Below, in pieces: positions 30,242 through 53,241 of a stretch of DNA of 64,000 nucleotides. Where the stretch lies: contig CANQAA010000001.1 of the NCBI GenBank assembly GCA_947589395.1, forward strand, positions 449 through 64,448, read 5' to 3'. Numbering within the stretch: position 1 is the first letter of the stretch; every line of letters begins with the position of its first letter. A program made the position numbers and the translations under genes. This DNA is from an uncultured Clostridia bacterium (GTDB lineage Bacteria > Bacillota > Clostridia > Christensenellales > CAG-917). The notes under the pieces are model-generated. The model was not told the origin of the DNA, did not search any database, and saw nothing but the letters and a program-made list of their open reading frames with translations.

Positions 30242-30427
30242 TCAGTCCTTTATCAACGTCGCAAGCCAATTGCCCTCGCCGATCTTGCGATTGAACTTGT
30301 CGTAGGTGCAGCGGCCGTCGAAGTAGCCGAGCCTCGCTCCGTACTTGTCGTAGACGGTCTGCCTTGCGCCCTCGTCCCTTATCTCGCCCAACTTTCTTCC
30401 ATACTTGTCTTTCAACACCTGAACCAT
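30242..30427 (-). CDS. Small hypothetical protein with three internal (Y/K)DK(Y/F)GxxLG repeats
   Basis: 61 aa containing KDKYGRKLGEI, YDKYGARLGYF and YDKFNRKIGEG. Preceded by GAGGAGG. Confidence 0.5.
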   Translation of the reverse strand: MVQVLKDKYGRKLGEIRDEGARQTVYDKYGARLGYFDGRCTYDKFNRKIGEGNWLATLIKD

Positions 30428-30591
30428 GCTTTCCTCCTCAAATTTGCATTATGTATTGTGTTTTTGACTCAACCTATCATATATAAACGGCAGACGCTCG
30501 TCGATCGTCCACCCACTCTATCTCCCGCTCGACCTTCCAAAAAGTCTTGCCGTCAAAAAGAGGCGCTCCTCATAAACCCCTGCTAAGCTAA

Positions 30592-30873
30592 CTATCCGAA
30601 TAGCACTTCTATGTCGTTTTCCGCTTCATATATCGTTTTGCCATTGAAAATCTTTGCCTCTTCAAAAGCGGTGACGCATTCGCGCCTATCTTTGGAAGTA
30701 TGTGCAAACAGCGTTTTGGAATCTTCCTCTATTGTGCAAACTTGCAAAGTATACAATTTGCCCGTTTCATCGCTAAAACCGGATATGATATACCTCCCGC
30801 CACCGCAAACAATTTCCTTTTCGGGATTGTAGTATAAGTCGCTTATAAATTCATTCAGAGTATTTCCTTTCAT
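30592..30873 (-). CDS. Small acidic hypothetical protein (last gene of the AT-rich islet)
   Basis: 93-aa ORF lying 24 nt after the preceding gene, on the same strand, in AT-rich DNA. Confidence 0.55.
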   Translation of the reverse strand: MKGNTLNEFISDLYYNPEKEIVCGGGRYIISGFSDETGKLYTLQVCTIEEDSKTLFAHTSKDRRECVTAFEEAKIFNGKTIYEAENDIEVLFG

Positions 30874-30897
30874 GGCATTCCACTCCTTTGAAATATT

Positions 30898-31461
30898 TTA
30901 TACTTTTCGTATAGTCCTTTCTGTCGACACGTCAAATTCCCCGTCATTATTCCAAAGGCTCAAATCTGAAAACAGTGGACAAACATCATCAATGCTTTTG
31001 TCGACATTCACATATATAACTTCGTCAAACCATACATGGCTCTTTGAAAATATAAACGAATGGTTTTCCGTCCTGACTATCAACGCCATGTCAATAACGA
31101 TATCTATGCCCTGTTCAGCACATTTGATCGTATCGGATACAATCTCAACGCTCGCTACAAGCTCGTCTACGTCATACATTTTTACGCCTGCGCCTTCCAA
31201 ACCGGGCATAAACGGATGGGCTGTATCGCTTATGCTACATGAAAATTTTGCCGCTTCCTCATATGGAACGTCCTCATTTTCAAACATAGCGATCTCTTCT
31301 TCCCCGTTTTTAAGCAATATGGACGTGCCGTCAAAATTGAGACGAGCCACACAATAAGACTGCCCTTCCATAGAATCGTCAGTTTCCACCGACAAAAACC
31401 GTTTGCCTACAATGCCTTTGAACATTTCTATCATATTTTCATCAAATTGCCATATAGTCAT
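30898..31461 (-). CDS. Acidic hypothetical protein (candidate cognate immunity/antidote)
   Basis: 187-aa D/E-rich ORF. Its ATG overlaps the stop of the upstream basic protein (ATGA). Confidence 0.6.
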   Translation of the reverse strand: MTIWQFDENMIEMFKGIVGKRFLSVETDDSMEGQSYCVARLNFDGTSILLKNGEEEIAMFENEDVPYEEAAKFSCSISDTAHPFMPGLEGAGVKMYDVDELVASVEIVSDTIKCAEQGIDIVIDMALIVRTENHSFIFSKSHVWFDEVIYVNVDKSIDDVCPLFSDLSLWNNDGEFDVSTERTIRKV

Positions 31462-31838
31462 TTTCTTTCCTCCTCAAAATGAATTTTTTGTGGCTTAATC
31501 TTGCCAGATTTAATAATTCGAATCTCAACCGCAGGACTTCCGGATTTAGAATATAAACGAAAGACCACTCTTGATCCGTCAGAAAAAATGGTTTGTTTCC
31601 CACGCCCATTAGCTAATTGTTCTTCATGTCCGCCTTTACTTATCTGCTTATAAAAGTGCTTTGCAGTTTCTATTGGTGTTGTACTACATATCACTCTGAT
31701 TCCACTATTCTTACCAGGTTGTCCAAAATATCCTTTTTGTGTTATAGGATACTTTTTTGACATTCTGTTTGCATTAGCGTCAATTCTACTTATACTACCT
31801 TTTGTGCCATAAAAATGGCCGCTATTTCCTGCTCCCAT
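31458..31838 (-). CDS. Small basic protein resembling a stand-alone polymorphic-toxin C-terminal module
   Basis: 126 aa, K/R-rich. N-terminal GNSGHFYGTKGS junction-like motif. C-terminal FRLYSKSGSPAVEIRI...KIHF pattern recalled from toxin C-terminal domains. Family not verified. Confidence 0.5.
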   Translation of the reverse strand: MGAGNSGHFYGTKGSISRIDANANRMSKKYPITQKGYFGQPGKNSGIRVICSTTPIETAKHFYKQISKGGHEEQLANGRGKQTIFSDGSRVVFRLYSKSGSPAVEIRIIKSGKIKPQKIHFEEERK

Positions 31839-31839
31839 A

Positions 31840-32508
31840 TCAGCCTACCTCCTTTTTATGAGATAAACTGAAATAGCTTTCATACTGCATTATGCTGACG
31901 CCATACATTTCTGCCAAACAGAATATTCTTGATGGTGCGCTTCCGTAAACTACAACATTTTTAGGCTGTAATTTGTTCAAGATATAATCAAATCCTTTGA
32001 TAAACATATGTTTGTATTCTTGAGATTTGATACAGCCATGCGTTCCTACAGCTATTGTTGAGTTACATTCCACCCCAAGACAAGCCAATTCGTATGTACG
32101 TTCATCTCCCCAACGTACATTTGGGATCGTCGGGATTCCATTATCATTCAGCCATGCGCCGACAGCCCTGCCGCGATATGTATTCCACTCTTGCATTACA
32201 AGCGGCATATCGTAATACAAACTGTAGTCCGGAGTGATTACTCCATCAAACTGTTTGAGAACAGATAGATACCTCTTGGGATCATTCCAAAAGGGCTCTA
32301 TCTTTTCATCATGCTCATAAAAAACCACGAACCCGGTGTGATCTTTTTCTGATTTCGCATGAGAGAACGGGACAAGTCGCGTAGGTAAAATGTCGGTTGT
32401 TTTCACACATGGTATTTCCAGCTCACCATCAAACCGAGCATGTTTCACCATGTATGCGTGAAAAACATCCTTACACCCTGTCCCATAATGTACAATAGTT
32501 TTTTGCAT
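31840..32508 (-). CDS. DUF4417-like protein
   Basis: FYEHDEKIEPFWNDPKRYL..FDGVITPDYSLYYDMPLVMQEWNTYRGRAVGAWLNDNGIPTIPNVRWGDERTYE matches my recollection of the DUF4417 signature. RBS AGGAG. Confidence 0.6.
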   Translation of the reverse strand: MQKTIVHYGTGCKDVFHAYMVKHARFDGELEIPCVKTTDILPTRLVPFSHAKSEKDHTGFVVFYEHDEKIEPFWNDPKRYLSVLKQFDGVITPDYSLYYDMPLVMQEWNTYRGRAVGAWLNDNGIPTIPNVRWGDERTYELACLGVECNSTIAVGTHGCIKSQEYKHMFIKGFDYILNKLQPKNVVVYGSAPSRIFCLAEMYGVSIMQYESYFSLSHKKEVG

Positions 32509-32623
32509 ATTATAGCTCCTATAACTTTAGTCAACCTTTGGTTGCCGTCAAATACTTGACATAAAAGACAGAGAGTGCTATAATATGCATATTCTAGAGC
32601 CATTATGGCACTTCTGAATGGCG

Positions 32624-32657
32624 CATAAAAGTTGCTGCAACAACTTTTATGCGCTGT
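32624..32657. terminator. Perfect 14-bp-stem hairpin between the ImmA and DUF4417 genes
   Basis: GCGCATAAAAGTTG-ctgcaa-CAACTTTTATGCGC. The T-run lies only on the plus side, so a role as a minus-strand terminator is uncertain. Confidence 0.4.
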
Positions 32658-32671
32658 TCTTTTATGTAGTG

Positions 32672-33199
32672 TTAATATGTTTTTCTTTTTTCAGCAGCCT
32701 TTTCGGATACACCATATGTAGTCATTATTTGTTCAACGGACATATTTTGTGTCGCCTCATATGGCATCATCACCTCGCCTGCTAATGCTTTTACTATCCA
32801 TTCAAGCCTACGATAACATGGCGTATCTTTTGCGATTATTGTACGAGAATAAATTGGTTTGAAACCAAGTTTATCAGCAAACACATGCATTATTTCATGC
32901 ATGATATGCATTCTGTATCCGCCAATATTGTTTTCTGCCGCTCCTTTATATACTGAATTTTTGATTTGTATTATATACCCATACTCGTTTTGATTACATT
33001 GTGCCGGCACGTTACATGGAAGTTCATTATCATCTAAAATTTCATAGTGTACATCCTCAAACCCTTCTATATCCGGCAACATATCAAGCATTGCAACAGG
33101 ATCCATTCGGGTATCTTGTCCAACCTTTGTAATTGAGCGAAATAATTTAGCATATAAGCGCAGTTCTTTGCGATTTGTCGGTTTAGTTTCGTAATCCAA
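32672..33199 (-). CDS. ImmA/IrrE-family zinc metallopeptidase
   Basis: HEIMH (HExxH) motif in MHIMHEIMHVFADKLG. 175 aa, and abuts the upstream XRE gene with no intergenic gap. Confidence 0.8.
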   Translation of the reverse strand: MDYETKPTNRKELRLYAKLFRSITKVGQDTRMDPVAMLDMLPDIEGFEDVHYEILDDNELPCNVPAQCNQNEYGYIIQIKNSVYKGAAENNIGGYRMHIMHEIMHVFADKLGFKPIYSRTIIAKDTPCYRRLEWIVKALAGEVMMPYEATQNMSVEQIMTTYGVSEKAAEKRKTY

Positions 33200-33562
33200 T
33201 CACTTTTCCTCCTTATTTAATAGGTTGAATATTGCATTAGCCGTTTCGTCATCCAGATCTTCAAACGAACGCTGAAATTGCAAAGCAACTCTTCTTTGAG
33301 ATTGTGTTGCGCTCGTCAAATCAATTTTTGCCTGTGTCTTGGATTCTGCTATGGCTTGTGATAATTCTTGCTGCTCTTGTACCGACAATGAATAGTGTTT
33401 GGTAATAATATCAAACCAATTATCAGGGACATTTCTCTTCCCTGTTTCCACTGCAGAAACAAATGGGAGTGTAACTCCTAACAATTTTGCCGTATTCGAC
33501 ATTGTTTCTTTATGTCTGATTCTCTGTATCCTCATAAACTCACCAAACTTTGTGTATGCCAT
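33200..33562 (-). CDS. XRE-family HTH regulator (ImmR-like partner of ImmA)
   Basis: FMRIQRIRHKETMSNTAKLLGVTLPFVSAVETGKRNVP is a typical HTH. RBS AGGAGG. Confidence 0.85.
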   Translation of the reverse strand: MAYTKFGEFMRIQRIRHKETMSNTAKLLGVTLPFVSAVETGKRNVPDNWFDIITKHYSLSVQEQQELSQAIAESKTQAKIDLTSATQSQRRVALQFQRSFEDLDDETANAIFNLLNKEEK

Positions 33563-36055: not shown

Positions 36056-36305
36056 TCGCAATATCTTGTGTTTAGTGACATTTTCGCGCCTGCATCTTGT
36101 GGTCGAAAAATTTTTTACTAAAAAATGCTTGCCATTTTTCACCTTTTATTCTATTATTTTTTCATCAATAAAATACAAATTATGCGCACCTTTGTCCGGT
36201 TATCCGAAATTCAGACAGCTTAAGACGTTCCCTGCCATATTCCGCAGTTTTTCGCCACGCTATCTGGCGCTATAATACTCACAAATCTTATAAGGAGTGT
36301 GCAAC

Positions 36306-37046
36306 ATGACAAAATCCATTCTGATTGCAGATGACAACCAATCCCTTGCATTGAGCCTCAAGGACTTTCTCTCCTCAAAAGAGGACTGCTCCGTCGTCGG
36401 CGTCGCGTACAACGGCGCGGAAGCCCTCAAAGCGGCGGAGGAACTTTCTCCGGATATCCTCATATTGGATATAGTTATGCCGGAGCTGGACGGCTTCGGC
36501 GTGCTCGCGGCGCTCAGCTCCAAAAAGCCCGCCGTGATCATGATGTCTCAGCTCGCTTCGGACGGGTTCGTGCAAAAGGCGATGCAATACGGGGCGAGCT
36601 ACTTCCTCGCCAAGCCTTTTGACTACGCCGTCCTGTACAGGGTCATTGAGGAGCTGACGAGCGAACAAGCGCCGTCCAAGCCGCGCGACAAGCGCAACAA
36701 GACGCTCGACGAGAAGATCGCCAACCTCTTCATCTCGGTGGGCATACCCGCGCACATAAAGGGCTATCAGTTCTTGAGAGAGGCGATAAAGATGACCATC
36801 GAGACGCCCGACATCATCAACGCGATCACCAAGCGGCTGTATCCCGGCATCGCGGAGAGGTACGGCACGTCCGCGTCTAAGGTCGAGCGCGCCATCAGAC
36901 ACGCCATCGAGGTCGCGTGGAACAGGGGCAAAATCGAGAACATCAACAACGTTTTCGGGATCAAGATCTACTCTCCCAACGAAAAACCCACAAACGGGGA
37001 GTTCATCGCTCTTATCGCCGACAAACTTCTGCTCGAGAGCGCGTGA
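36306..37046 (+). CDS. spo0A: Sporulation master response regulator Spo0A
   Basis: Receiver domain (ILIADDN, DILILDIVMPELDG). The diagnostic Spo0A C-terminal domain is present: PAHIKGYQFLREAI, SKVERAIRHAIEVAWNRG and KPTNGEFIALIADKL. Confidence 0.96.
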   Translation: MTKSILIADDNQSLALSLKDFLSSKEDCSVVGVAYNGAEALKAAEELSPDILILDIVMPELDGFGVLAALSSKKPAVIMMSQLASDGFVQKAMQYGASYFLAKPFDYAVLYRVIEELTSEQAPSKPRDKRNKTLDEKIANLFISVGIPAHIKGYQFLREAIKMTIETPDIINAITKRLYPGIAERYGTSASKVERAIRHAIEVAWNRGKIENINNVFGIKIYSPNEKPTNGEFIALIADKLLLESA

Positions 37047-38682
37047 TCACGCGGTATGCGCCCGGTTTTATACGCAATACGCACGCGCGCAACAATCAGA
37101 TCATAACGCGTCGCGCACGCGTAGGCGTAAATGTCCGCACGGAACATGCAAGCTGTAGGGGTTTACACGGGCTGTAGGGTTTATGCAAGCTATTGGGACA
37201 TATAAAAGCGATAGAGTTCGCGGCATATTGACGAAAGACGTCTTCCTGCCGATCGCAAAAAACGAGGGAATGCGAGACGGAAGGATGTCGCCGTACAAGC
37301 GTATGACGCGCTCTGTGACTTGAAGCCTTGATAGGCTCACGCTGCCCTTTTATGGCCGCTAAGGCGCAAAGATGTCGCTGCAACTTGCGCGTGTTCGCGA
37401 ACGTATGCGCCCGCCGTATGACGAAAATCATGTTGTACGGCGTGTTGCTGCTTGCGCTTGCTCGCGATCGCATGCGCGATTGTCGCGGCAGAGGCAATTC
37501 CTTTTGCAAAACTCGGGGATATGGGGAGGCAACTGCTCATGGAGTATACAAACCCAACGCCATATCCGGCAGGGGAGACCACACTCCCCGCCTCCCCTAT
37601 CCCGCAATCGCAAAAAGGGCGTTCTCGCGACATGTCTTGATAGGCAGTCTTGACGCGTGCATTCAAATGGGCGATTTCCTCTTGCGTCGCTTTGCATGAG
37701 GGCGTGTTACGCAATGTTTTGTGCGTCCTACGGTTTTGTTTTGCATAGCCGACGAGCTTCGGGGCTTTTTAGCAATGCATAGTCTGGTCGACGACCGTAG
37801 GAGATTTTGAGCAACGTCGCTTACAAAACGGCTTTTCAACTATGCGACTTTTGAAAGCGCTTATGTGCGCCGTCTCGTCTTACTTAAACGAGTCTATATG
37901 CGAGGCGCTTTTTGCAACGAAGTAGATAAGAACGATTTATATTTAAATTAGCTAATGTTTATTGATATTTTAGTATACTTGTGAACTATTATGCGCTGTT
38001 GAAAGCGTCGCCGTCTATTCTTTGCATTATTAGTCCAATCCAATGTCCTCGATTGAGCTGTTGTGCGCAGTCAACATCGATTCCGATTCGCCATTAAACT
38101 TGTCCTATGCCACTGACTGCAATGCGCCAATCAAGGTAATCGCTGAGTATACAAATGGGAAAGTCGCGTTGCTTGCGCACTCGATTTTAGTCAATTACCC
38201 GTCTGATGTAAGTCATAAAGACAAAAGCTGAACTGTGCGGTAATAGCAATTCAAGCGAAAAAAGCGTAAGTACAAGCAAAATAATACCCATAACATATGG
38301 AATAACTTGCAAAAACAGAACTTACTTCCATAAAATTATTAGTCAGAGCACAGGTCAATTACAGATATTATTGCGATAAAGCTTAGAACTAAAACATTGT
38401 AAAAATACAAAATTCAGGCAAGAAAAACGCCAATAAACAGTGATGTTTTACAAAAAATTAACAAACTACAAGCTCGGAAACGGCTGACGAGACAAGGCAT
38501 CGCCATATATAGAATATTGTGAAACAAATTCAAAAAAATCAAGAAAATTTGCGAAACATTCTCTGAAAAATCGGGGTGAAAAATTTGGGTGAAAGGAGCT
38601 CAAAATTTTTCAAGGAGAAAGAACGAAATTTACTTTTCGGTGAGCAAAACACCTACTATTTAGTGGCATTTTCGCTGTTTTC

Positions 38683-38698
38683 GGTTTCACGTGAAACG
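38683..38698. promoter_or_regulatory. parS site (14/16 match to consensus)
   Basis: gGTTTCACGTGAAACg compared with TGTTNCACGTGAAACA. Confidence 0.75.
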
Positions 38699-38713
38699 GA
38701 CGGAGCGGATTTT

Positions 38714-38729
38714 TGTTCCACGTGAAACA
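38714..38729. promoter_or_regulatory. parS site (16/16 match)
   Basis: TGTTCCACGTGAAACA is identical to the Bacillus-type Spo0J/ParB binding consensus. Confidence 0.85.
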
Positions 38730-39533
38730 TTGACTTTTCTTGGAATTTTCCGCCATACTGACCCGAAAACCCCGCTGCGCGACAGATCGACTTATGATAG
38801 GAGTTTTTCTCTCTTGCGCACAATAAAATCCCAAACACGTTAAGCTCCTCAGCTTGGGACGACCGGCTCAAATAATGCCGCTGTATTGATGGCAACTGCC
38901 CAAACGATTTATGACCGACTGTCTTCTTTTTTTATACCCTTCTTTACGGCTTTTGGGCTTACAGTCACACTTTTGAACAATATTTTGATATTTTGCCACA
39001 AAACTGACCGCTCTGCAGACTGTCACGCTTCTTTTATGTAAAAAACCGGCCTATAACATCTTTCAGACCATATGTTGAGAAACTGAGAAAATCAATCATT
39101 TTTATTTCGCCATTCATGACCTGTTTATCGTCCAAATTTCACCGGAAACTATTGATTTTGTTGCCAAACACTATACTACAAAGACAAATTGGACGAACTG
39201 CTTAAGAGAAAGATGACGGCAATTATATGAATAAGCAAGCGCGTGTGCGGGCAATATTTGTACTACGCAAATTTGTCATAGTGTGAGCAACCAAGTTTGC
39301 TTGTGAGCGATCTCTAAGGTTATTGACGAGCAAAAGCGCACACAAGTACAATTTATCAATTGGCAAATTTGCTGTCAAGGGGCTAATCGGTGGGGCAAGT
39401 AGCTAAAGAATATAAGGGATTACGGGGATTCACATGATATATCGCCGAGAGCGGTCTTGCAGTCAATTTTGCGCGTTTGACAAAACCTCGATTTCTTCAC
39501 TATTCAGTGGCATTTTTGAGACAATTTCCGCGA

Positions 39534-39549
39534 TGTTTCATGTGAAACA
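39534..39549. promoter_or_regulatory. parS site (15/16 match)
   Basis: TGTTTCATGTGAAACA embedded in the longer palindrome cgcgaTGTTTCATGTGAAACAtcgcg. Confidence 0.75.
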
Positions 39550-40790
39550 TCGCGCAATATTCGATAGTTGCGCACCACTTGTATAATAAACAACACGGGT
39601 TACAACGGTAAGTATCGAACTGCAAGCGTAGCACATTATGGCAAATATATCATATGACAGGAGTTGTGCATAACGCCAATGTTATGCATGGCAGCAAAAC
39701 ATAGCGTGTGCCGGCTGACAGAGCGCGTGGTGTCAATCATAACGTGTGACGGCATGCTCCATGCGAGACATGGTAGACAGGACATTTCGACGGCAGCAAA
39801 AAGGCTCAATTCAAACTTTGTGAATTACAGCAAATGTTCTGCATGATCTAAAGCAGCGCAGAAATTGTAAGTATTGTGAGCGCCAAGCAAAACGTGTGGC
39901 AAGCAAAGCATGTTGGGCAATATATAATTCGTGCAGGACAAGAAGGAAAAACTTAAGACGAACAAAAAAGGTGAGCGCAAAAATCATTGAGACGAGAGAA
40001 ATTATAGTGAAAGATGTGAGGGGACGATATGTTTGGCATGCGGCATGTAAATAAGTGAGACATGTGTCAAAAGGAATGAATGAGAAGCGTGAGGGGCAAT
40101 CGAGGATCATATGCCGACACCTTCCCTGCAATGTAATAGACTCGTGAACTTGTCAAAAGTCGAAAAGATCCGTGCGCAAATGAATGCGGGTAGCGATCTG
40201 AACAGTGCAAAACTGTTTACACATGTATGTGCGAGCGAATATTAGCGTGGCCGTGCATGTTGGGTGACGACGAGCGGGGACGAGGCATAAAGGCAAAAGG
40301 CATGCGGGTTTAACAGGTTGGCGGGCATATAAAAACGAGAAAGCGGGCGAGGACGGTGCGCAAAGTCGACATGCGAGACGAACGAGCGGACGAGCCGAGT
40401 GAAAAAGTTGATGCAAGAGCCGCCACGTTCGACATCAAAAAACGAAGACTTGAGTGGAGAGCGGACGGATATTGCATGCCAAAGCCGAAAAATGTCGAGC
40501 GATGGTTGGGCGAAATGGGCGCTAAAAAGCGAAATTCGGCGTGAGGAGCGGAAAAATCAAGGGGTTTGGGGAGTGGGGCGGAAAGCAAAATTACAGGGAA
40601 TCGGAATTTTCGCGGGATGAGGAATGTATCGGCTTCGCGGAAAAATTCTCGACAGAAAAATTTGCCGTATGCTCGAAGCAAAATTTGCCGTATGTTTGGG
40701 ACAAAATTTTACCGCTCGACGAGTAGTCTTGCTCTTCTCCTGCGCACAATCTTGCGCATCGCTCGTTCCTTCGAATGGTTTAATGAAAAT

Positions 40791-41130
40791 GACTATTCTA
40801 ATAATATACGGCTATCCTCAAATAAGTAAGATCTCTCTGATGTTATAAAGCTATCCTCTTGGGATATGGGTATCATAATGAAATACGGGTGTCATAATGA
40901 GGTAGTGTATTATAATGATATAGGGTTATCCCAATGATATGGATTATTATTTTATAGGGCGTTCCGGTGGGATCAACTATCTTTTCGGGGCAAATCGTCC
41001 CATTCGAGATGAAGCTATCATGACGAGGCAAAGTTATCCCCATGCGTTATGACTTTCCAAATGATATATAGCTATTCTAATAAGATATGACTATACCAAT
41101 GAGATACGACAAAACTAATGAGATGGAGCC
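40791..41130. repeat. Array of about 17 degenerate 18-20-bp units, each a small dyad (TATC-N5-GATA type), in two blocks
   Basis: Units start at 40791, 40811, 40850, 40870, 40889, 40907 and 40925, then 41014, 41033, 41051, 41071, 41089 and 41108. Examples are gttatcccaatgatatgg and gctattctaataagatat. Stops occur in all frames. Confidence 0.7.
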
Positions 41131-41704
41131 TTCTATTATATAAAAATATGTTGCTTTTGATCTTTCACGTTACAATATTGATAGGGTAGTTTAGTTATCC
41201 CATGCACAAACGTATGAACGTTGTTTTGAAGACATTCAATCGCTTTTCCCGCATTTTTCGAATCTACACTTCCCACAAGCGGGACAAGTTTGCGTGACAA
41301 TTTAGGCATTATGTTTAATTGAACAGGCTATATACGTCTCTTCGGCAATTGTATAGCTGCTTGGATGTTGCAAGATCACCCTTTATTCCCGCTTTTTGGT
41401 CTGCTGGTTTCTGTGGCCGGACAAAATGCCGGCGCGATCTTTATGTTTTTGCGTTTTTATAAATATTACCTTTTATACTTTTACTTTTCCTGCGCTCGGT
41501 GGATGTTTGTTTTAACTCCTCACTTCGCAAGGGCGTTTTTATGCGCCCGTCGCTTTATCGACGATATTTGGGCTGCCGCGCCATATTTTCGTCACATACA
41601 GTATATTAGTTAACAAGTAAACTAATATGCATCATCAAAAGTTTCTGCGTTTGATCCGCTATGCGGAACGTATGATGTTTGCAATATACTTTGTGGAGTT
41701 TGGA

Positions 41705-42400
41705 TCACTTTGCGGCGTTCAGGGTGCGGATGATCGCGGGAAGGAGTTCTTCGTAGCGGCTCAAGCCCTTTTTGACAACAGAAGAGAAGCTCTCGGGAGC
41801 GCTATCATCGGCGCGATCGGAAACGACTTTGATTGAAACGAGGGGAAGCCCGTTTCTTTCGGCGGCGATGGCAATGCCCGCAAGTTCCATGTCGCAAATT
41901 TGCGCTCCAAAGTCCTCACGCAGACTGTGCTTTGTCTCTGCGCCCGCAACGAACACGTCGCCGGAGGCAACGCTCACCCGCCTCAGAGCGCTCTCAGAAG
42001 CCGTCAGAGAGGCGACGAGCCCTTCGTCGAGGACAAACCAGACGTCGTCCTTGCCGTCGTACTGTCCAGCTTTGACGCCGTCTAAGGCGGACGTGTCGAA
42101 TTGATAGTGGCAGACTTTGTCCGCTATCACAACCGAGCCCACGTCGAGGTCGTTTGCAAGCGCGCCGACGAAGCCGAAGTTGACGATCGCCTCGACAGAG
42201 TAGACGTCCTTGAGCAACTGTACGGCAAGCGCCGCGCGGATCTCGCCGACGCCGCTCGTCGCAACGAAGAGTTCGTCCTCGCCTGTCATGACGGCGCGAA
42301 CGGTCACGCCCGCGACGGTATCGACCTTTTTCACGTTTCCCAACTTTTGATATATCGGCAGGGCCTCTTCGGCCATTGCCGCGATGATACCTATTTTCAT
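41705..42400 (-). CDS. mtnN: 5'-methylthioadenosine/S-adenosylhomocysteine nucleosidase family protein
   Basis: MKIGIIAAMAEEA...TSGVGEIRAA...CDMELAGIA match PNP_UDP_1 / Pfs-like motifs. Confidence 0.75.
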   Translation of the reverse strand: MKIGIIAAMAEEALPIYQKLGNVKKVDTVAGVTVRAVMTGEDELFVATSGVGEIRAALAVQLLKDVYSVEAIVNFGFVGALANDLDVGSVVIADKVCHYQFDTSALDGVKAGQYDGKDDVWFVLDEGLVASLTASESALRRVSVASGDVFVAGAETKHSLREDFGAQICDMELAGIAIAAERNGLPLVSIKVVSDRADDSAPESFSSVVKKGLSRYEELLPAIIRTLNAAK

Positions 42401-42505: not shown

Positions 42506-43201
42506 GTGGAAAACGAAATAGACTTTTTGACGGAAGGAGCAAGAGCGCTCGGCGTGGAGCTTGAAAGAGGCAAGTGCGAAAAGCTCGTCGACTTCAAGCG
42601 GCGGGTGCTCGAGGCGAACAAACTTTTCAACCTCACCGCGATAACAAACGACGAGGAGTTTTTGATCAAGCACATTCTCGACTCCCTCTCGGCATCCCCC
42701 CTCATATCTCGCGGCGCGAGACTGCTCGACATAGGCTCGGGGGCGGGCTTTCCCGCCATGCCGCTCGCGATAGCGCGGGAGGACATATTTGTCGTTGCCC
42801 TTGACGCGACCTTGAAAAAGACGACGTTTTTGAGCGAGGCGGCAAGGGAGCTGAACGTAACAAACCTCACCGCCGTAAGCGGACGCGCGGAAGAGAAGCG
42901 CGAGCTTTTTTGCACTTTCGATTTCGTTACCGCGAGAGCGGTCGCGCCGCTGACAATACTTCTCGAACTCGCCTCCCCGATGCTTAAGGCGGGCGGCACG
43001 TTCGTTGCGTACAAAACGGACGAAAACGAGGTTTATCTTGCAAAAGAAGCGCTTAAAGTGCTGAATATGAAATTTGAGGGCGCAAAACGGTTGACTCTCC
43101 CGAACGGAGACGGGAGAAGTTTGCTGCTGTTCGAGCAGGTTTTGCCCTGCCCGAAAAGATATCCGAGACAGTTCGGAGCGATCAAAAAACACCCACTGTA
43201 A
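42506..43201 (+). CDS. rsmG: 16S rRNA (guanine527-N7)-methyltransferase
   Basis: GTG start. NLTAITNDEEFLIKHILDS and the SAM motif LLDIGSGAGFPAMPLAI. Lies upstream of parAB. Confidence 0.9.
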   Translation: MENEIDFLTEGARALGVELERGKCEKLVDFKRRVLEANKLFNLTAITNDEEFLIKHILDSLSASPLISRGARLLDIGSGAGFPAMPLAIAREDIFVVALDATLKKTTFLSEAARELNVTNLTAVSGRAEEKRELFCTFDFVTARAVAPLTILLELASPMLKAGGTFVAYKTDENEVYLAKEALKVLNMKFEGAKRLTLPNGDGRSLLLFEQVLPCPKRYPRQFGAIKKHPL

Positions 43202-43333: not shown

Positions 43334-44101
43334 ATGGCGCGCACGATTGCTTTTTCAAATCAAAAAGGGGGCGTTGGCAAGACCACGACCTGCGTCAATC
43401 TCGCGGCGGCGCTCGCGGGAATGGGCAAAAAGACGCTTGTGGTGGACTTCGACCCGCAGGCGAATGCGTCAAGCTCTCTCGGGGTGTTCGACAAAAACGA
43501 GAAGGGCTCGATATATTCCGTTTTGTGCGAAGATCTCGACATAAACGACGCGATCGTACCAAGCGAGGAAGATGGGCTCTTCTTCATTCCATCCTCAAGC
43601 GACGTTGCGGGAGCGGAGTTGGAGCTTTCTCAGATCGTCATAGGGCGGGAGCGCGTCCTCGAGGAAAAGTTGGAGGAACTAAAGGGTGAGTTCGACTTTG
43701 TATTCGTCGACTGTCCGCCCTCGCTTGGACTTTTGACAGTCAACGCGCTCACGGCGTCTGACGGGGTGATCATCCCCATACAGTGCGAATTTTTCGCGCT
43801 CGAGGGACTCACGCAGATGATGAACACGATCCGCCTCGTCAAAAAGCATCTCAACTCGTCCATCGAGATAGAGGGCGTCGTGCTCACGATGTACGACGCA
43901 AGAGCCAAGCTCACAAAGGGCGTGCTCGACGAGATAACGAAGTTTTTCAAGGACAAGGTCTTTGAAAGCAAGATCCCGCGCAACATTCGCCTCGCCGAAG
44001 CGCCGAGCTACGGAAAGAACATCTTTGCGTACGACCGTCGCTGCGCGGGCGCAAACGCATACATCGCTCTTGCAAAAGAATTTTTGAATAAGATAGATTA
44101 G
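43334..44101 (+). CDS. parA: Chromosome partitioning ATPase ParA/Soj
   Basis: Deviant Walker A in IAFSNQKGGVGKTTT, plus VVDFDPQANAS. Confidence 0.93.
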   Translation: MARTIAFSNQKGGVGKTTTCVNLAAALAGMGKKTLVVDFDPQANASSSLGVFDKNEKGSIYSVLCEDLDINDAIVPSEEDGLFFIPSSSDVAGAELELSQIVIGRERVLEEKLEELKGEFDFVFVDCPPSLGLLTVNALTASDGVIIPIQCEFFALEGLTQMMNTIRLVKKHLNSSIEIEGVVLTMYDARAKLTKGVLDEITKFFKDKVFESKIPRNIRLAEAPSYGKNIFAYDRRCAGANAYIALAKEFLNKID

Positions 44102-44110
44102 GAGGCTATT

Positions 44111-45004
44111 ATGGCGACAAAAAAAGGCGGACTTGGAAAGGGTCTCTCCGCGCTGTTCAGCGACAGCGAGGTGAACGTCCCCGTTGAAAATCTCGAGGAT
44201 TATCAAATCGTGGATATAGACATATCCCTGCTCGATCGCAACCTCAAGCAACCCAGAAAATCCTTTGACGACGACAAGCTCAAGGAGCTTGCCTCATCCA
44301 TCTCGACCTACGGCGTGCTTCAGCCGCTCATTCTTGCAAAGCAAGGCGAAAGATATCTGATCATCGCGGGCGAAAGAAGATACCGCGCAAGCCTCATCGC
44401 GGGCAAAAAGACCGTCCCTGCGATCCTAAAAGAGTACACCCCCGAGCAGATACAGGAAATTTCCCTCATCGAAAACCTGCATAGGGAAGACCTCAACGCC
44501 ATCGAGGCGGCGGAGGGTATGCGCGAGCTCATGGACAATCACGGGCTCACTCAGGAGGAAGTCGCTCAGCGCATAGGCAAGTCCCGCCCGTACGTCACGA
44601 ACACGCTCAGGCTGTTGCAACTGCCAAAGGAAGTGCTCGATCTCGTGCGCTCGGGAGAACTCTCGCCCGGTCACGCAAGGACGCTCATCTCCATTGACAA
44701 CAAGGCGTTTTTGATCGAACTCGCAAAAAGAGCGGTGCAGAGCGGCATGTCCGTGAGAGAGCTCGAACAGCACGTCCGCATGTACTTCACGCGCAAGGAT
44801 ATCCCCGTCGGGCCCAACAAAAATCAGGAAGTCACCCTCGAGATGAAGGAGTTCGTCAGCGACCTAAAGCGCCTCTTTGCAACGAAGGTAAAGATCAAAG
44901 GCAATCGCAACAAGGGCAGGATCACCATCGACTACTTCTCGGCGGACGATCTTGACAGAATTTACTCCCTCGTCCACGCGATGAAAGAGAAGAGCGAAAT
45001 GTAA
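44111..45004 (+). CDS. parB: Chromosome partitioning protein ParB/Spo0J
   Basis: GLGKGLSALF, LQPLIL..YLIIAGERRYRA (ParB box) and an HTH (LTQEEVAQRIGKSRPYVTNTLRLL). Confidence 0.93.
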   Translation: MATKKGGLGKGLSALFSDSEVNVPVENLEDYQIVDIDISLLDRNLKQPRKSFDDDKLKELASSISTYGVLQPLILAKQGERYLIIAGERRYRASLIAGKKTVPAILKEYTPEQIQEISLIENLHREDLNAIEAAEGMRELMDNHGLTQEEVAQRIGKSRPYVTNTLRLLQLPKEVLDLVRSGELSPGHARTLISIDNKAFLIELAKRAVQSGMSVRELEQHVRMYFTRKDIPVGPNKNQEVTLEMKEFVSDLKRLFATKVKIKGNRNKGRITIDYFSADDLDRIYSLVHAMKEKSEM

Positions 45005-45140: not shown

Positions 45141-46310
45141 ATGTACGCGCTGCTGCTTGCTTTAATTTATCTTGCCTTCATCAGTTTGGGGCTGCCGGAC
45201 TCCCTGCTTGGCGCGGGGTGGGCGGTCATGCACGTCGAGATGGGCGCTTCGGTGTCGTCTATGGGCGTGCTCACGATGATAATTTCCGGCTCGACGATCG
45301 TCTCGAGCTTGTTTTCCGACAAACTCACAAAAAAGTTGGGCACGCGGGTGGTGACGGTGGTCTCCGTCTTTTTGACCGTCGTCGGACTTTTGGGATTTTG
45401 TTTTTCAAACAAATATTATTTGCTCGCGATATCTTCTATCCCGTACGGCTTGGGCGCTGGCGCGATAGACGCGTCGCTAAACAACTACATCGCGCTTCAC
45501 TACTCGGCAAAACATATGAGCTGGCTACATTGTTTTTGGGGCGTCGGCGCGATCGTGAGCCCGTTTATCATGGGTTATTCGCTCGCAAACATAAGCTGGC
45601 GAGGCGGCTATTTCATCGTGGCGTGCATTCAGATCGTCATCGGATTTATTTTGCTTGCGACCCTGCCCGTTTGGAAGGTCAATCCGATAAAGGAAGCGGA
45701 ACAGAAGGGGAGCGTGGGGGTGATATCCGCGCTTAAGATCAAGGGCGTGCCCCTAATTTTGCTCGGGTTTTTCGCATATTGCGCGGCGGAGGCGACGACA
45801 ATGCAGTGGGCGAGCACATATTTTGTTCAGGTCAAATCTTTGAGCGCGGAAAAAGCCGCAAATCTCGCGTCTCTATTTTACATCGGCATGACGGCGGGAA
45901 GGTTTGTCGCGGGGTTCGTCTCGGACAGGCTCGGGGACAAGAAAATGATCATAATCGGCACATGTATTTTGTTTTTGGGGTTGATTTTGCTTGCGCTGCC
46001 CGTGCGCGGCACAAATTTGGCTATCGCCGGATTTTTGATAATCGGGCTCGGATGCGCGCCGATATATCCAAGCATCGTTCACTCTACGCCCGGCAATTTC
46101 GGGCTCGCGTCTTCGGGCGCGATAATTTCCATTCAAATCGCCTTCGCGTACGTCGGAAACACGTTTATGCCGCCTCTATACGGGCTTTTGGGAAGTAAGA
46201 TCGGCTTTTCTATCATGCCGTTTTATCTGATATTCTTCTTTGCTCTCATGATCTTGTTCACGATGCTCACGTTCAAAGTTTGCAAAAAGAAAAGCGAGAG
46301 TCTCGCTTAA
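45141..46310 (+). CDS. MFS transporter
   Basis: 389 aa with about 12 hydrophobic segments and MFS-like loops (SDKLTKKLGTR, SDRLGDKKM). Confidence 0.8.
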   Translation: MYALLLALIYLAFISLGLPDSLLGAGWAVMHVEMGASVSSMGVLTMIISGSTIVSSLFSDKLTKKLGTRVVTVVSVFLTVVGLLGFCFSNKYYLLAISSIPYGLGAGAIDASLNNYIALHYSAKHMSWLHCFWGVGAIVSPFIMGYSLANISWRGGYFIVACIQIVIGFILLATLPVWKVNPIKEAEQKGSVGVISALKIKGVPLILLGFFAYCAAEATTMQWASTYFVQVKSLSAEKAANLASLFYIGMTAGRFVAGFVSDRLGDKKMIIIGTCILFLGLILLALPVRGTNLAIAGFLIIGLGCAPIYPSIVHSTPGNFGLASSGAIISIQIAFAYVGNTFMPPLYGLLGSKIGFSIMPFYLIFFFALMILFTMLTFKVCKKKSESLA

Positions 46311-47395
46311 CCCTCGCCGACAACTCTTCCGTTTGAAATTTTGATGATCTTTGCGGGACAGTCCACAGTGAAATCGTTGCAAGTCGTTATGATAGTCTGA
46401 AACCCCTCCGTCATTTTTAAGAGCATAGTCTGTCTCGTCTCATCGAGCTCGCTCAGCACGTCGTCAAGGAGCAAAACGGGCGGCTCGCCTATCTCGTCTT
46501 TGTATATGACGACCTCTCCGAGCTTCATTGAGAGCGCTATTGAGCGCTGTTGCCCTTGCGAGGCGTACTTTCTGCTGTCCTTGCCGTTGATTTCGATCTT
46601 TATGTCGTCCCTATGCGGTCCTACGGTCGAAAAACCGAGTTCCTTGTCCTTCTCGCGCGAGGCGACTATCTTTTGATAGAGTTCTTTTTCGACGTTGTCG
46701 AAATTTTCTATCGTCGTCTCGTATGAGAGTTTGAGCTCCTCTTTTTGCATGCTTATCTCTTTATGAAACCTGTTTGCGGCTTGATTTAGGGTTTGGATAT
46801 ATTCCACGCGCTTTGAAATTATAATCGCGCCTTCTTTTGCAAGGGAGAGATCCCACACGTCCAACATTTCGTCAGCGTGGTCGGAATGATTGTAGTTTTT
46901 GAGCAGGTTATTTTTTTGTTTCAGCAGTTTATTGTAGCGTTGCAGACAGATAAAGTAGCTTTTTTGTTGTTGAGAGAGTCCTATATCCATAAATCTGCGG
47001 CGCTCCTGCGGGGACTCTTTTATGAGTTTCATCTCGTCGGGGGAGAAGAACACGACGCCCAAAACGCCAAGTAATTCCCCCGCCCTTTGCACGGGGATCT
47101 TGTCTATCATCACCCGCTTTTTTCCGCTCTCGTCGATTTGAATGTCTATCCTATACTTTTTATATTTTTTGTCGACTACGACCTTTATGCTCGCTTTTTC
47201 CTCGCCTATTTTTATGAGTTCCTTATCTTTAAGAGTGCGCGGGCTATGCAGCATGGACGCCATATACACGCTCTCGAGCATATTCGTTTTGCCCGTCGCG
47301 TTGTCCCCGAATATGACGTTCAGCCCGCCGTCGAATTTGACGGAGGCGCTCTTGTAATTCCTGAAATTTTCTATTTCGAGGGAGGAAATTTTCAT
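46307..47395 (-). CDS. recF: DNA replication and repair protein RecF
   Basis: LEIENFRNY...GDNATGKTNMLESV (Walker A), SQGQQRSIALS and LLLDDVLSELD. Confidence 0.93.
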   Translation of the reverse strand: MKISSLEIENFRNYKSASVKFDGGLNVIFGDNATGKTNMLESVYMASMLHSPRTLKDKELIKIGEEKASIKVVVDKKYKKYRIDIQIDESGKKRVMIDKIPVQRAGELLGVLGVVFFSPDEMKLIKESPQERRRFMDIGLSQQQKSYFICLQRYNKLLKQKNNLLKNYNHSDHADEMLDVWDLSLAKEGAIIISKRVEYIQTLNQAANRFHKEISMQKEELKLSYETTIENFDNVEKELYQKIVASREKDKELGFSTVGPHRDDIKIEINGKDSRKYASQGQQRSIALSMKLGEVVIYKDEIGEPPVLLLDDVLSELDETRQTMLLKMTEGFQTIITTCNDFTVDCPAKIIKISNGRVVGEG

Positions 47396-47457
47396 AATTT
47401 AAGTATAACCCGTCGGGCGCGATTTTTCAACTTGTTGCGTATTTGTTTTTTATTTAC

Positions 47458-47485
47458 TTGAAAAATTTTTGCATTTTGCTATAAT
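47458..47485 (+). promoter_or_regulatory. dnaA promoter (extended -10) ending 6 nt before the ATG
   Basis: TTGAAA, 16 nt, TGcTATAAT. There is no Shine-Dalgarno sequence between the -10 and ATG 47492. Confidence 0.5.
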
Positions 47486-47491
47486 AAAACT

Positions 47492-48865
47492 ATGATAAAT
47501 ATAGACGAATTTTGGGCGAACGTAAGCACAGAGCTTTCAATTTCAATGAACACTCTGCATTATCAACTCTGGATCGAACATCTTGAGCCCGTTTGCTTTA
47601 TCAACAACTCCCTCGTTCTTATGACCATCACAGAGATGGCAAAGCGCACAATAGACGCAAAATATCGCGACGTGATAAAGGAAGTTGCAAACTCAATCAA
47701 CTCGTTTGTGGACGACATCATCATAATAACTCCCGACAAAAAGGACGAGTTTTTGTCAAAGCAAAATATATTTATCGAAAACAAGGGTTTCGTCACAAAA
47801 AAGCCCGTGAAGGACATTTCGGACATTCGCCATTGCCAATTTCTTGAGAAGTTCACGTTTGAAAACTTTGTGGAAGGCGCGTCAAACAGTTTTGCTCTTG
47901 CCGCTTGCAAGACCGTCGCGGAAAATCCGGGAGGGAAGTACAACCCGCTCTTCATCTACTCCGGCGTGGGACTCGGAAAGACGCATCTTTTGCACTCGAT
48001 AGGCAATTACATCTTCAAAAACTCGCCGAAGACGAGCGTGCTTTACGTCAGCACGGAGTCTCTTGTCAACGACCTTATTTCCGTGTTCCGCACGGGGTCT
48101 AACGAAAAAAACAACGAATTTCGCGAAAAATACCGTTCTTGCGACATCCTCATGGTGGACGACATTCAATATCTCATCGGAAAAGACGCAATACAGAATG
48201 CATTTTTCAACATCTTCAACGACCTGTATCATCAAAACAAGCAGATCATTTTGACTTCGGACAGAGCTCCAAAAGACCTGACTACTCTCGAGGACAGGCT
48301 TCGCACGCGCTTCAGTTGGGGGCTTATGGTCGACATTCAGCCGCCGGATCTCGAACTTAGGGTCGCGATACTCAAAAACAAAGCGGATCAGGCAAACTTC
48401 GACCTCTCCGACGAAGTGGCGCTCTTTATTGCCGAGCACGCGCAGACGAACATTCGCGAGCTTGAGGGATTTTTGAATAAGATAATCTTTTACAGCTCCC
48501 TCACAAACACCGTCATTCGCACAAAAGAGCTTGCGTATGAGGCGATAAGCGACTTCATTGAGGACAAAAAGGATACTGTCGAGGCGTGCGATATCATCGA
48601 TTGCGTCTCAAAATATTTCAACATCTCCCAGCAGGATTTGTTTGCAAAAAAGCGCACGAAGGGCGTCGTTGAGCCGAGAATGATAGCGATCTATCTCATC
48701 ACCGAGCTTCTGCCCATGCCCCTCTCGCAAATAGGGGAGTTGTTTGGCGGAAGGGATCACACGACCATCATCCACGCCCGCGACAAGATAAGCGAAGAGA
48801 TAAAGGTCAATCCCCGCATGCGCATCATCGTCACCGACATAAAAAATATGATATTGAATAAGTGA
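47492..48865 (+). CDS. dnaA: Chromosomal replication initiator protein DnaA
   Basis: AAA+ motifs (GGVGLGKTHLLHSIGN, DILMVDDIQYL) and the domain IV motif (FGGRDHTTIIHARDKI). Confidence 0.97.
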   Translation: MINIDEFWANVSTELSISMNTLHYQLWIEHLEPVCFINNSLVLMTITEMAKRTIDAKYRDVIKEVANSINSFVDDIIIITPDKKDEFLSKQNIFIENKGFVTKKPVKDISDIRHCQFLEKFTFENFVEGASNSFALAACKTVAENPGGKYNPLFIYSGVGLGKTHLLHSIGNYIFKNSPKTSVLYVSTESLVNDLISVFRTGSNEKNNEFREKYRSCDILMVDDIQYLIGKDAIQNAFFNIFNDLYHQNKQIILTSDRAPKDLTTLEDRLRTRFSWGLMVDIQPPDLELRVAILKNKADQANFDLSDEVALFIAEHAQTNIRELEGFLNKIIFYSSLTNTVIRTKELAYEAISDFIEDKKDTVEACDIIDCVSKYFNISQQDLFAKKRTKGVVEPRMIAIYLITELLPMPLSQIGELFGGRDHTTIIHARDKISEEIKVNPRMRIIVTDIKNMILNK

Positions 48866-48867
48866 AT

Positions 48868-48905
48868 TAAAAAAAAACGGCTGTTTTTGCAGCCGTGTTT
48901 TTTTA
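48868..48905. terminator. Bidirectional terminator between convergent dnaA and dnaN
   Basis: A9, then ACGGCTG/CAGCCGT stem, then T7. Confidence 0.75.
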
Positions 48906-48910
48906 TAGTT

Positions 48911-50011
48911 TTATCCGATAACTCTCAAGGGAAGGATGAGATACAGCCACTTGTTTGTCTCGCCCTTTATTATGCACGGGGCAGTTGAGGATGTGAAGTT
49001 GAGCGTAACATACGGCTCGTCGATCGCGTGCATGCAGTCGATGAGATATTTTGAGTTGAAGCCGATGACGAGGTCCTTGCCTTTGAGGCTGATTGCGACC
49101 TTCTCGTTTATCTCGCCGTCCTCGCTGTGCGCGTAAAGCTGGATGTTGTCCTCTTTGACCTCTATCCTCACATAAGATTTTTTATCCAGTCGGTTGATGA
49201 GCGCAACTCTGTCGATGGAGTTTTCAAACTGTTTTTTGTCTATCGTGACTTCGGTTGAAAAGACGTTGGGAATGATGCGCTCGTAGTTGATATATTCCTC
49301 GCTGATTAGGCGTGTGACGATCTTTGTGTGGAAGAGATCCACCATGATGTAGTTTTTCTCGACAAACACGGTGATGGTCTCGTCGCCGTCGTCGATAAGG
49401 CGGGAGAGCTCGTTCATGCTCTTTGCCGGAACGACGATCTTGTCCACAATGCCGTTGTTTTTGATGACGGAGCGTGTGAGAGCAAGGCGATATCCGTCGC
49501 TTGCGACAGCCTCGAGCTCATCCTCTTTGATGTTAAGACATACGCCGCGAAGGGTGGGGCGCGCCTCGTCTACGGACACGTTGAAGATGACCTTGTTGAT
49601 GACTTCTTTCAGCTCTTTTTTCAAGATGACGAAGGAGTGCGAGGTGTCGACTTCCTTGAAAACGGGATATTCTTCCGCCGCAAAACACTTTATTTGCAAC
49701 TCGCTGTCAGGATATCTTATGACGAGTTTTGAAAGCGCCGTACCGTCAAGCTCGACCTCTTCGGTCTCGATCTTCTTCGCGTAATCCGCAAACAGCTTGC
49801 CCGGAACGACGACTTCGCCGTCTATCAAGACTTTGGCGTTTATTTTCTTTTCGATTGCCAACTCCAGATCCGTTGCAAAAAGCGTGAGCGTGTCGTCTTT
49901 TGCGGTGACTTTCACGCCTTCCAATATTGCGTTCGTCCTCTTTTGAGGAAGCGCCTTTACTACCTTGCTCAATGCGTCGCTGAGTTCATTTCCTTGACAA
50001 ATAACTTTCAT
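48911..50011 (-). CDS. dnaN: DNA polymerase III beta sliding clamp
   Basis: 366 aa. MKVICQGNELSDALSKV..ILEGVKV..., three-domain length, C-terminal LYLILPLRV. Confidence 0.93.
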   Translation of the reverse strand: MKVICQGNELSDALSKVVKALPQKRTNAILEGVKVTAKDDTLTLFATDLELAIEKKINAKVLIDGEVVVPGKLFADYAKKIETEEVELDGTALSKLVIRYPDSELQIKCFAAEEYPVFKEVDTSHSFVILKKELKEVINKVIFNVSVDEARPTLRGVCLNIKEDELEAVASDGYRLALTRSVIKNNGIVDKIVVPAKSMNELSRLIDDGDETITVFVEKNYIMVDLFHTKIVTRLISEEYINYERIIPNVFSTEVTIDKKQFENSIDRVALINRLDKKSYVRIEVKEDNIQLYAHSEDGEINEKVAISLKGKDLVIGFNSKYLIDCMHAIDEPYVTLNFTSSTAPCIIKGETNKWLYLILPLRVIG

Positions 50012-50240
50012 AATCGCCTATTATCTCTTTTATTTTTATATTTTTAATAATGATAACATAAATAAGCCCTGTTGACAAGTGGAAAAATACATTCAAAATT
50101 TGATTTTTCGGCAAAATTTCCACTCGCTACTTGCAAATATAAAAAATAAATTTTTCTTGATTTATGTTGATAACCTCGCCGACTTATAAACATTTCTTTA
50201 AACTTACGCACACTTATCCACTATATGGATAATTGCCCGA
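50012..50240. promoter_or_regulatory. DnaA-box cluster plus AT-rich tracts upstream of dnaN (candidate oriC or dnaN control region)
   Basis: Head-to-head boxes TTATCCACT (50214-50222) and TTATCCATA (complement of 50224-50232) are each 8/9 matches. TGTTGATAA (50165-50173) is 8/9 and AGTGGAAAA (50078-50086) is 7/9. AT-rich tracts at 50021-50070 and 50131-50170. Confidence 0.45.
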
Positions 50241-51495: not shown

Positions 51496-51711
51496 TCAAA
51501 TGTCCGAAATTCCAAGCAAAAAATCCACCGAAACATTGTGAAATTCGGCAAATTCAACGAGCAGCGCAAGCGGCGGTTCGCGCTGTTCCTTTTCGTAATG
51601 AAGGTATGTGACGCTGTTCAAACCAAACACTGATGCAAATTCTTTTTGAGTCATACCTTTTTCGATTCTCAATTCTTTCAAACGTTCACCCAAAATAATT
51701 TGTTTTCCCAT
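51496..51711 (-). CDS. XRE-family HTH regulator
   Basis: LGERLKELRIEKGMTQKEFASVFGLNSVTYLHYEKEQREP. Confidence 0.85.
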   Translation of the reverse strand: MGKQIILGERLKELRIEKGMTQKEFASVFGLNSVTYLHYEKEQREPPLALLVEFAEFHNVSVDFLLGISDI

Positions 51712-53240: not shown

Positions 53241-53241
53241 A

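Follow-up and report, generated by a model that had tools for sequence, protein, structure and literature searches.

The 64-kb window analysed here (one stretch of 64,000 nucleotides) is the origin region of a Christensenellales-like Clostridia (Firmicutes) chromosome, and at positions 40791-41130 it contains a degenerate tandem array of a 19-bp unit, which an earlier note on the same DNA had likened to plasmid iteron origins and plasmid centromeres. With confidence that is about evenly balanced, we read this array as a lineage-specific degenerate minisatellite sitting in the least constrained spacer of a gene-free island that also carries parS sites. This reading follows from the degeneracy of the units, from the absence of the array in family-level relatives that keep the island, from length differences that amount to whole units, and from the lack of a partner gene or of a second site in the window. 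On this reading the array is neither the target of ParB nor an iteron origin, and it is no centromere of the plasmid type either.

That the array is a genuine head-to-tail periodic repeat, as the note had held, was confirmed by autocorrelation: bases 19 positions apart match in 48% of cases over 40791-41130 (z=8.7 against shuffles), harmonics are seen at lag 38 (z=4.6) and lag 57 (z=3.8), and a sliding lag-19 profile places the edges at about 40780 and about 41130. Alignment yielded about 18 usable units, all in the same orientation and joined head to tail, with the consensus cTATCCTAATGAGATAnnn; the aligned form is CTATCCTAATGAGATA plus three variable bases, and the mean column identity is only 53%. 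The note had described about 17 units at 18-20 bp; most units are 18-20 bp long, with 19 bp the commonest length, and the full range is 16-20 bp. Given this range and the 53% column identity, substitutions and 1-bp indels have both accumulated in the array. A tandem-repeat search, the check proposed for the array, did detect repeats, but at default stringency Tandem Repeats Finder (TRF) returned only the two pieces that have decayed least, with 3.2 copies of an 18-bp unit and 2.5 copies of a 19-bp unit, and a repeat finder joined the pieces at 19- and 38-bp spacings. The array had been split into two blocks with a gap at 40960-41014; it is a single array, because this segment keeps the 19-bp phase with units that are more decayed, so that CTATCTTTTCGGGGCAAA at 40977 still matches CTATCATGACGAGGCAAA at 41015. 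Its parts and immediate surroundings are as follows.

40791..41130, plus strand: the degenerate tandem array (lag-19 autocorrelation, sliding scan, unit alignment, matrix matches)
40791..40959, plus strand: left block, 9 units, period drifting to 18 bp in 40889-40942 (TRF, repeat finder, unit alignment)
40960..41014, plus strand: central, most decayed units, 19/38-bp phase kept (repeat family, sliding lag-19 profile)
41015..41128, plus strand: right block, 6 units of exactly 19 bp, including TTATCCCCA at 41034 (repeat finder, alignment)
41131..41180, unstranded: AT-rich tract to the right of the array, 78% A+T (base composition)
40648..40709, plus strand: separate short tandem repeat to the left of the array, about 2.3 copies of the 23-bp unit AAAATTTGCCGTATGCTCGAAGC (TRF, repeat finder)

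The units had been described as dyads of the form G-yTATC-N5-GATAy-rg, but an exact fit was found in one unit only (40926); the inner pattern [CT]TATC-N5-GATA[CT] occurs once, and the looser TATC-N4-8-GATA in two units. What recurs instead is a directional core, TAT[C/T]-N2-3-AAT[G/A]A-N-ATA. When a unit matrix was used, 12 array units scored 12.6-20.1 on the plus strand and two further units about 8.5, the minus strand within the array gave at most 9.8, and no match above 15.8 bits was obtained elsewhere in the 64-kb window. The array is non-coding, every one of the six frames across it containing at least 5 stops, and its units abut without the unique spacers of a CRISPR, so that the earlier exclusion of a peptide repeat and of a CRISPR array holds. 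The AT-rich tract is likewise real but not unique in the island, and 50-mers that are equally AT-rich occur at 37920 and 41440.

The array is enclosed in a 3.65-kb gene-free stretch that we call the parS island, within about 4.6 kb between spo0A and a nucleosidase gene that hold no credible genes. Decayed genes were ruled out here by Pfam searches of 19 local open reading frames (ORFs) of 50-123 aa at 37.3-41.8 kb, which gave no match better than E=0.06, and by tblastx against relatives, which detected no protein-level conservation in the gene-free stretch, the parS module alone aligning. Recoded stop codons were rejected as well, since no convincing long ORF appeared in this gap after reassignment of any one stop codon.

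37973..41628, unstranded: gene-free parS island enclosing the array (no long ORFs, no Pfam or tblastx support; boundary motifs)
37973..37986, plus strand: left boundary motif, PAL-A, core GTATACTTGTGAAC (motif comparison)
38683..38729, unstranded: parS pair, GGTTTCACGTGAAACG at 38683 and TGTTCCACGTGAAACA at 38714 (motif scan)
39534..39549, unstranded: third parS site, TGTTTCATGTGAAACA (motif scan)
41603..41628, unstranded: right boundary hairpin/palindrome, PAL-B, ATATTAGTT-AACAAGTA-AACTAATAT (motif comparison)

A conserved motif of the ACTTGTAAAC type, with the common core (G)TTTACTTGTAAAC, marks both ends of the island. The outer arms of PAL-B vary by species yet stay complementary, with up to 19 bp of perfect pairing in relatives, and PAL-B frequently has an A-run and a T-run at its sides (examples of PAL-B are at about 7232-7270 in L007 and about 3056-3094 in L010); this right-hand element may serve as an operator, as a terminator working in both directions or as a DNA hairpin site. 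Upstream of the parS pair, 38519-38600 contains direct copies of the parS half-site (TGTGAAACA, TGCGAAACA, GGTGAAAAA and GGTGAAAGG), followed by a small terminator-like hairpin, CCACTATTTAGTGG, to which a T-run is added in relatives.

We mapped the island in nine relatives (L003, L006-L008, L010-L012, L056 and L057), and 9/9 show parS sites (four in L011, five in the others), DnaA boxes and at least PAL-B, PAL-A being undetected in L003 and L012. Across the clade the island lies beside rsmG-parAB, is 2-3.7 kb long and has the order PAL-A, a fixed DnaA box TGTGGATAT 66 bp past this left motif, parS1, the parS2/3 pair, a second fixed and perfect DnaA box TTATCCACA about 84 bp before parS4, then parS4, parS5, a variable AT-rich spacer and PAL-B, although individual loci may lack a detected copy of one or another element. 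Motif mapping gave the following island coordinates.

L006: 4739-7264
L010: 854-3088
L011: 4903-6792
L012: about 2870-6173
L056: 8525-10506
L057: 8952-11019

Against these relatives, the window's island is the longest, has only three parS sites and is devoid of the conserved DnaA boxes; this copy has lost parS1, parS5 and both boxes, and its parS-pair module (38519-38751) is the sole part of the island that is conserved at the nucleotide level. The array occupies the spacer before PAL-B. Its unit was not found in any relative of a search that covered L001-L012 and L056-L059, and the corresponding spacer, 276-970 bp long in relatives (520-970 bp in L006, L011, L056 and L057), showed no motif shared among them on inspection. 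Another array is present in the same spacer only in L012 and L003, with a 17-bp unit GGCTTTCGTGAGCAATT; it begins with the DnaA boxes AGTGGATAA and TGTGGATAA, its first unit being a near-perfect box. The 19-bp and 17-bp arrays show no homology, Smith-Waterman scores being at shuffle level on the plus strand, and the elevated reverse-strand score (32 versus a null maximum of 28 in L012) probably reflects a shared palindrome. The conservation in close relatives that the earlier note had looked for is therefore absent at species-to-species distance, though the array is retained in a single conspecific contig, P0001/L055, the sole conspecific sequence found: a metagenome scan for closer relatives with the neighbouring nucleosidase gave nothing above 42% identity, and exact-protein look-ups for three window proteins gave no match.

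The nucleosidase of the L055 contig is 100% identical to that of the window, and the contig overlaps only the right two-thirds of the array (window position 40897 onward). Over the 919 bp compared, the two sequences differ by four substitutions, one 1-bp indel and 38 extra bp in L055, which are a tandem second copy of a two-unit segment.

40996..41033, plus strand: 38-bp segment (two units) with a tandem second copy in L055 (pairwise alignment)

L012 and L003, whose islands are 93% identical, are distinguished inside their own array by two indels, of 34 bp (two units) and of 12 bp, and by a segment that is scrambled locally. Since both the 38-bp and the 34-bp differences amount to two units, arrays in the spacer before PAL-B appear to turn over by unit pairs, faster than their flanks. 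In its features, the 19-bp array agrees with a variable-number tandem repeat (VNTR): it is a non-coding head-to-tail repeat, it shows a whole-unit copy difference (in L055, one low-coverage contig), and its flanks are conserved and the array is not.

If the array is a minisatellite, its approximately 18 unit copies, all on one strand, would have arisen by tandem duplication, most likely through slipped-strand mispairing or unequal recombination, and gain and loss of copies may continue, mostly as 38-bp pairs of units. The spacer that hosts it, from the last parS position to the right-hand boundary hairpin, would be the least constrained part of the island. The island itself is presumably the ParB loading zone; parA-parB lie 2.2 kb away, and the probable oriC at dnaN/dnaA about 9 kb away. 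The array most likely has no sequence-specific function and no dedicated binding protein, and would at most be spacer DNA in a ParB-covered zone. Degenerate arrays are not rare in the window, because others are present at 24286-24540, at 39.6-39.8 kb and at 40648-40709. The stretch at 39600-39800 is a weaker 19-bp periodicity (z=4.5) with a different unit, roughly CATAACGTGTGACGGCATGC. The one at 24286-24540 is a non-coding array of about 25 units of 10 bp, TTGTCGANNN (lag-10 z=7.0, lag-20 z=8.6), in a 293-bp gap of the pur operon between an IMP cyclohydrolase-like gene and a purH-like gene; its core resembles the Spo0A box TGTCGAA, with one repeat per helical turn.

Several observations weigh against a minisatellite. 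Bacteria usually remove useless DNA, so that 340 bp kept through such decay are somewhat unexpected. The columns of the unit are unevenly conserved: of 16 units, 12-13 retain T6, A7, T8, A13, T14, G15, A18, T19 and A20, and the linker columns are random in the unit matrix, which is how a protein footprint would look, although shared ancestry of the units together with AT-biased mutation could be the source of much of this pattern. Two lineages independently hold arrays in the same spacer, beside the same hairpin, and the one in L012 and L003 is seeded by DnaA boxes. Finally, L055 is only one conspecific sequence, with a coverage of 1.6x according to its contig name, and its 38-bp difference could be an assembly artefact (a collapse or an expansion).

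We regard a second explanation as possible but rather unlikely: the array may be a functional origin-proximal binding platform, either for DnaA, through weak TTATCC-type half boxes with a titration or oriC-auxiliary role, or for an unlinked dimeric helix-turn-helix (HTH) or response-regulator-type protein. The 19-bp spacing of successive units, about 1.8 helical turns, would then let a protein filament wrap around the DNA. The uneven columns with their conserved TAT/ATG/ATA triplet pattern, the single orientation of all units and the AT-rich flank that follows them are consistent with such a platform, as are the three units that lie within 2 mismatches of the DnaA box TTATCCACA, one of them with only 1 mismatch. 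The fixed DnaA boxes of the relatives' islands suggest that DnaA probably visits the island, and the array of L012 and L003, which opens with true boxes, ranks second among the DnaA-box clusters of L012 and shares first place in L003. However, the unit consensus agrees with the box at only 6/9 positions and has no CACA, which is essential, and by our own calculation about 40% of random 19-mers would reach 6/9 through chance alone. The earlier note was right that TTATCCCCA at 41034 is an 8/9 match to a DnaA box, but the array contains only this single box at up to one mismatch, with about three at 2 mismatches, and the window as a whole has no excess of boxes at up to one mismatch (15 observed versus about 14 expected). 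Moreover, most relatives are without the array while the other island elements are conserved, Pfam searches of the local ORFs turned up no candidate gene for a binder, and the motif is found nowhere else in the 64 kb. The same 9-mer, TTATCCCCA, recurs at 51316, and nearby, at about 51497-51780 on the minus strand, a small XRE-type HTH gene of about 71 aa was read by eye, with an inverted repeat TAATAAACTA-N9-TAGTTTATTA upstream of it.

An extended form of this explanation takes the 19-bp array and the 17-bp array of L012 and L003 together as fast-co-evolving, lineage-specific binding platforms, a second and non-ParB nucleoprotein element in a hairpin-bounded "centromere island", with a binder that is encoded elsewhere. 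We consider it unlikely; such an element would organise or regulate the origin region, for example by DnaA titration or by sporulation-specific origin anchoring. If it is true that the island arrays bind protein, they would represent a further level at which the origin region is organised in these little-studied gut Clostridia, one that is new and evolves rapidly. Among other binders, no cluster of Spo0A boxes was found in or near the array, and comparison of the unit by eye with the Fur box, the Noc-binding site and parS half-sites gave partial matches at chance level. A search of the literature on origin-region tandem repeats in Clostridia produced nothing relevant.

The best DnaA-box cluster of the window lies elsewhere, upstream of dnaN.

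50165..50232, unstranded: best DnaA-box cluster, with the head-to-head pair TTATCCACT/TATGGATAA, upstream of dnaN (box scan, cluster score)

Its cluster score is 10 (49825-50224), versus 6 for the array region, and the position upstream of dnaN also has the highest score in L012, shares the highest in L003 and comes second in L011. This cluster is most probably the oriC core, and the minus-strand order dnaN-recF-...-gyrB-gyrA also points to an oriC on the upstream side of dnaN, which would place it about 9 kb away from the array. The array, by comparison, has neither a set of boxes at up to one mismatch nor a position that is conserved in relatives. We discarded GC skew as a guide to oriC: skew at third codon positions tracks the orientation of the genes and not their position in the window, which leaves no replication signal separable from the effect of the coding strand, so that the cumulative-skew minimum at 37-39 kb does not locate oriC. 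The gene order in this region is unusual, with dnaN (minus), dnaA (plus) and recF (minus) at 46307-50232, dnaA being inverted between dnaN and recF; it is common to L003, L007, L008, L011 and L012, and is rearranged again in L009 and L056-L058.

The likeness to iteron origins and centromeres that the earlier note proposed is genuine at the surface, in the direct repeats of about 19 bp, the AT-rich flank, the one DnaA-like unit and the partition/origin neighbourhood, but the defining features are missing. A decayed replicon, from an integrated plasmid, phage or island, could have left the array behind as its iterons, with rep lost or Rep supplied in trans, but we judge this very improbable. The combination of 19-bp direct repeats, an AT tract and a DnaA-like box does reproduce the classic layout of an iteron origin. 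Yet no Rep remnant or other domain was detected in the ORFs of 37.3-41.8 kb, even at E<=1, blastn against 72,556 plasmids and 50,697 phages gave no match, the flanks are those of a conserved chromosomal parS island with no mobile-element genes, and the units are far more degenerate than functional iterons. This explanation is already weakly refuted.

A type II/III-style centromere (parC/tubC-like) that is served by an unlinked ribbon-helix-helix (RHH) or winged HTH adaptor, as part of a second segregation or origin-anchoring system, for instance a sporulation-specific one, is also quite improbable. Head-to-tail units of about 20 bp resemble the parC repeats of pSK41, and the partition island that holds the array is next to spo0A. 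Centromeres of types II and III, however, normally abut and autoregulate their own operon, and no adjacent adaptor or motor gene (ParR-ParM, TubR-TubZ or omega-delta) exists within 5 kb; the array is not conserved in relatives, and RHH-type dyad symmetry is limited to just 2 units. The earlier statement that no partner gene is adjacent is thus correct for the Rep, ParR, TubR and omega types, but it overlooked parA-parB at 43334-45004, the three parS sites at 38683-39549 and dnaA at 47492. These nearest partition genes are a chromosomal type Ia-like parA-parB, separated from the array by two other genes, and the array contains no parS palindrome (16-bp TGTTNCACGTGAAACA) at up to 3 mismatches.

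Hardly credible, finally, is a transcribed array that acts as RNA, as a protein sponge or a repeated hairpin. The array does lie in a long non-coding stretch, and sponge RNAs with repeats, such as CsrB, have a similar repeat spacing. Nevertheless, neither strand folds as well as its shuffled controls (z=+1.18 and +0.92), no Rfam match was obtained at gathering score or at E<=1, promoter-like matches are no commoner than in shuffles and terminator-like ones are rarer, and no promoter-terminator pair brackets the array.

The chromosomal setting is given by the following genes, all assigned with Pfam.

13422-15956, minus strand: gyrA
15967-17877, minus strand: gyrB
18.1-29.9 kb, minus strand: pur operon
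36297-37046, plus strand: spo0A
41705-42400, minus strand: PNP_UDP_1 (nucleoside phosphorylase family), the nucleosidase gene
42506-43201, plus strand: rsmG
43334-44101, plus strand: parA (soj)
44111-45004, plus strand: parB (spo0J)
46307-47395, minus strand: recF
47492-48865, plus strand: dnaA
48911-50011, minus strand: dnaN

Measured from the array, the distance to rsmG is 1.4 kb, to parA-parB 2.2 kb, to dnaA 6.4 kb and to the best DnaA-box cluster about 9 kb. ParB shares 66-76% identity with proteins from metagenome-assembled genomes of the Christensenellales type and of uncultured Clostridia, with which the window also has in common the gene order nucleosidase/rsmG/parA/parB/recF/dnaA/dnaN. 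Other features were seen farther from the island. A low-GC islet at 30080-33562 (39% G+C), between the pur operon and a PepSY protein gene, carries XRE-type HTH, ImmA/IrrE-like M78 peptidase and DUF4417 genes and looks like a mobile-element remnant. A stretch of 220 bp is duplicated in tandem at 52813-53317, with 93% identity. The duplication ends within tRNA-Asn (53242-53317, minus strand), 21 nt inside its 3' end, and may be an integration or excision scar at the tRNA. A 45-bp tandem pair is present in two copies 54 kb apart, at 170-255 and 54209-54294 (ACCCCAAAAAACGAGGCAAGCTCATTTGATGGGGACCCCGATTTT and a second version); inspection by eye suggests a single element present in both orientations, perhaps a palindromic repeat of the dispersed kind.

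As a minisatellite, the array would be of little import beyond its use as a strain-typing marker, and it serves as a warning that iteron-like looks alone make neither an origin nor a centromere. Its setting is more informative than the array itself, a gene-free, hairpin-bounded island of parS sites and DnaA boxes near a rearranged dnaN/dnaA/recF region being the more notable by-product of this analysis.

Among known systems, iteron origins (F ori2, P1 oriR with its 19-bp iterons, RK2 and pPS10) are similar to the array in their same-orientation direct repeats of 17-22 bp, in the adjoining AT-rich tract and in the DnaA-box-like sequence, but the array differs in having no rep gene or remnant, a chromosomal context, no plasmid or phage similarity and no counterpart in relatives; working iterons are also near-identical copies, whereas the array, at about 53% identity per column, has no such conserved core. 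With plasmid centromeres (R1 and pSK41 parC-ParR, pBtoxis tubC-TubR, the omega heptads) it has in common tandem short units that could carry a protein filament, and with pSK41 parC a period of about 20 bp; it differs by its directional, non-dyad units, by the absence of an abutting adaptor-motor operon and by its lack of conservation. DnaA-box clusters, such as E. coli datA and the clusters of B. subtilis, are likewise origin-proximal and non-coding with a few TTATCC-type sequences, and the analogous array of L012 and L003 comes closer to them by starting with true DnaA boxes, but the array of the window has only one box at up to one mismatch, a consensus without CACA and a chance-level match. 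It is in the same island as three parS sites, with parA-parB 2.2 kb off, as in the chromosomal ParABS centromeres of Caulobacter and Corynebacterium with their parS clusters, but its units are not parS and contain no 16-bp TGTTNCACGTGAAACA palindrome, and the relatives' island functions without any array. Compared with typical typing VNTRs, the array is much more degenerate, sits in a parS island near oriC and is known from only one other strain. Still, bacterial minisatellites of the MIRU-VNTR type resemble it in their non-coding head-to-tail units, in having no linked gene and no conservation between species, and in strain differences of whole units, which here amount to 38 bp, and to 34 bp between L012 and L003.

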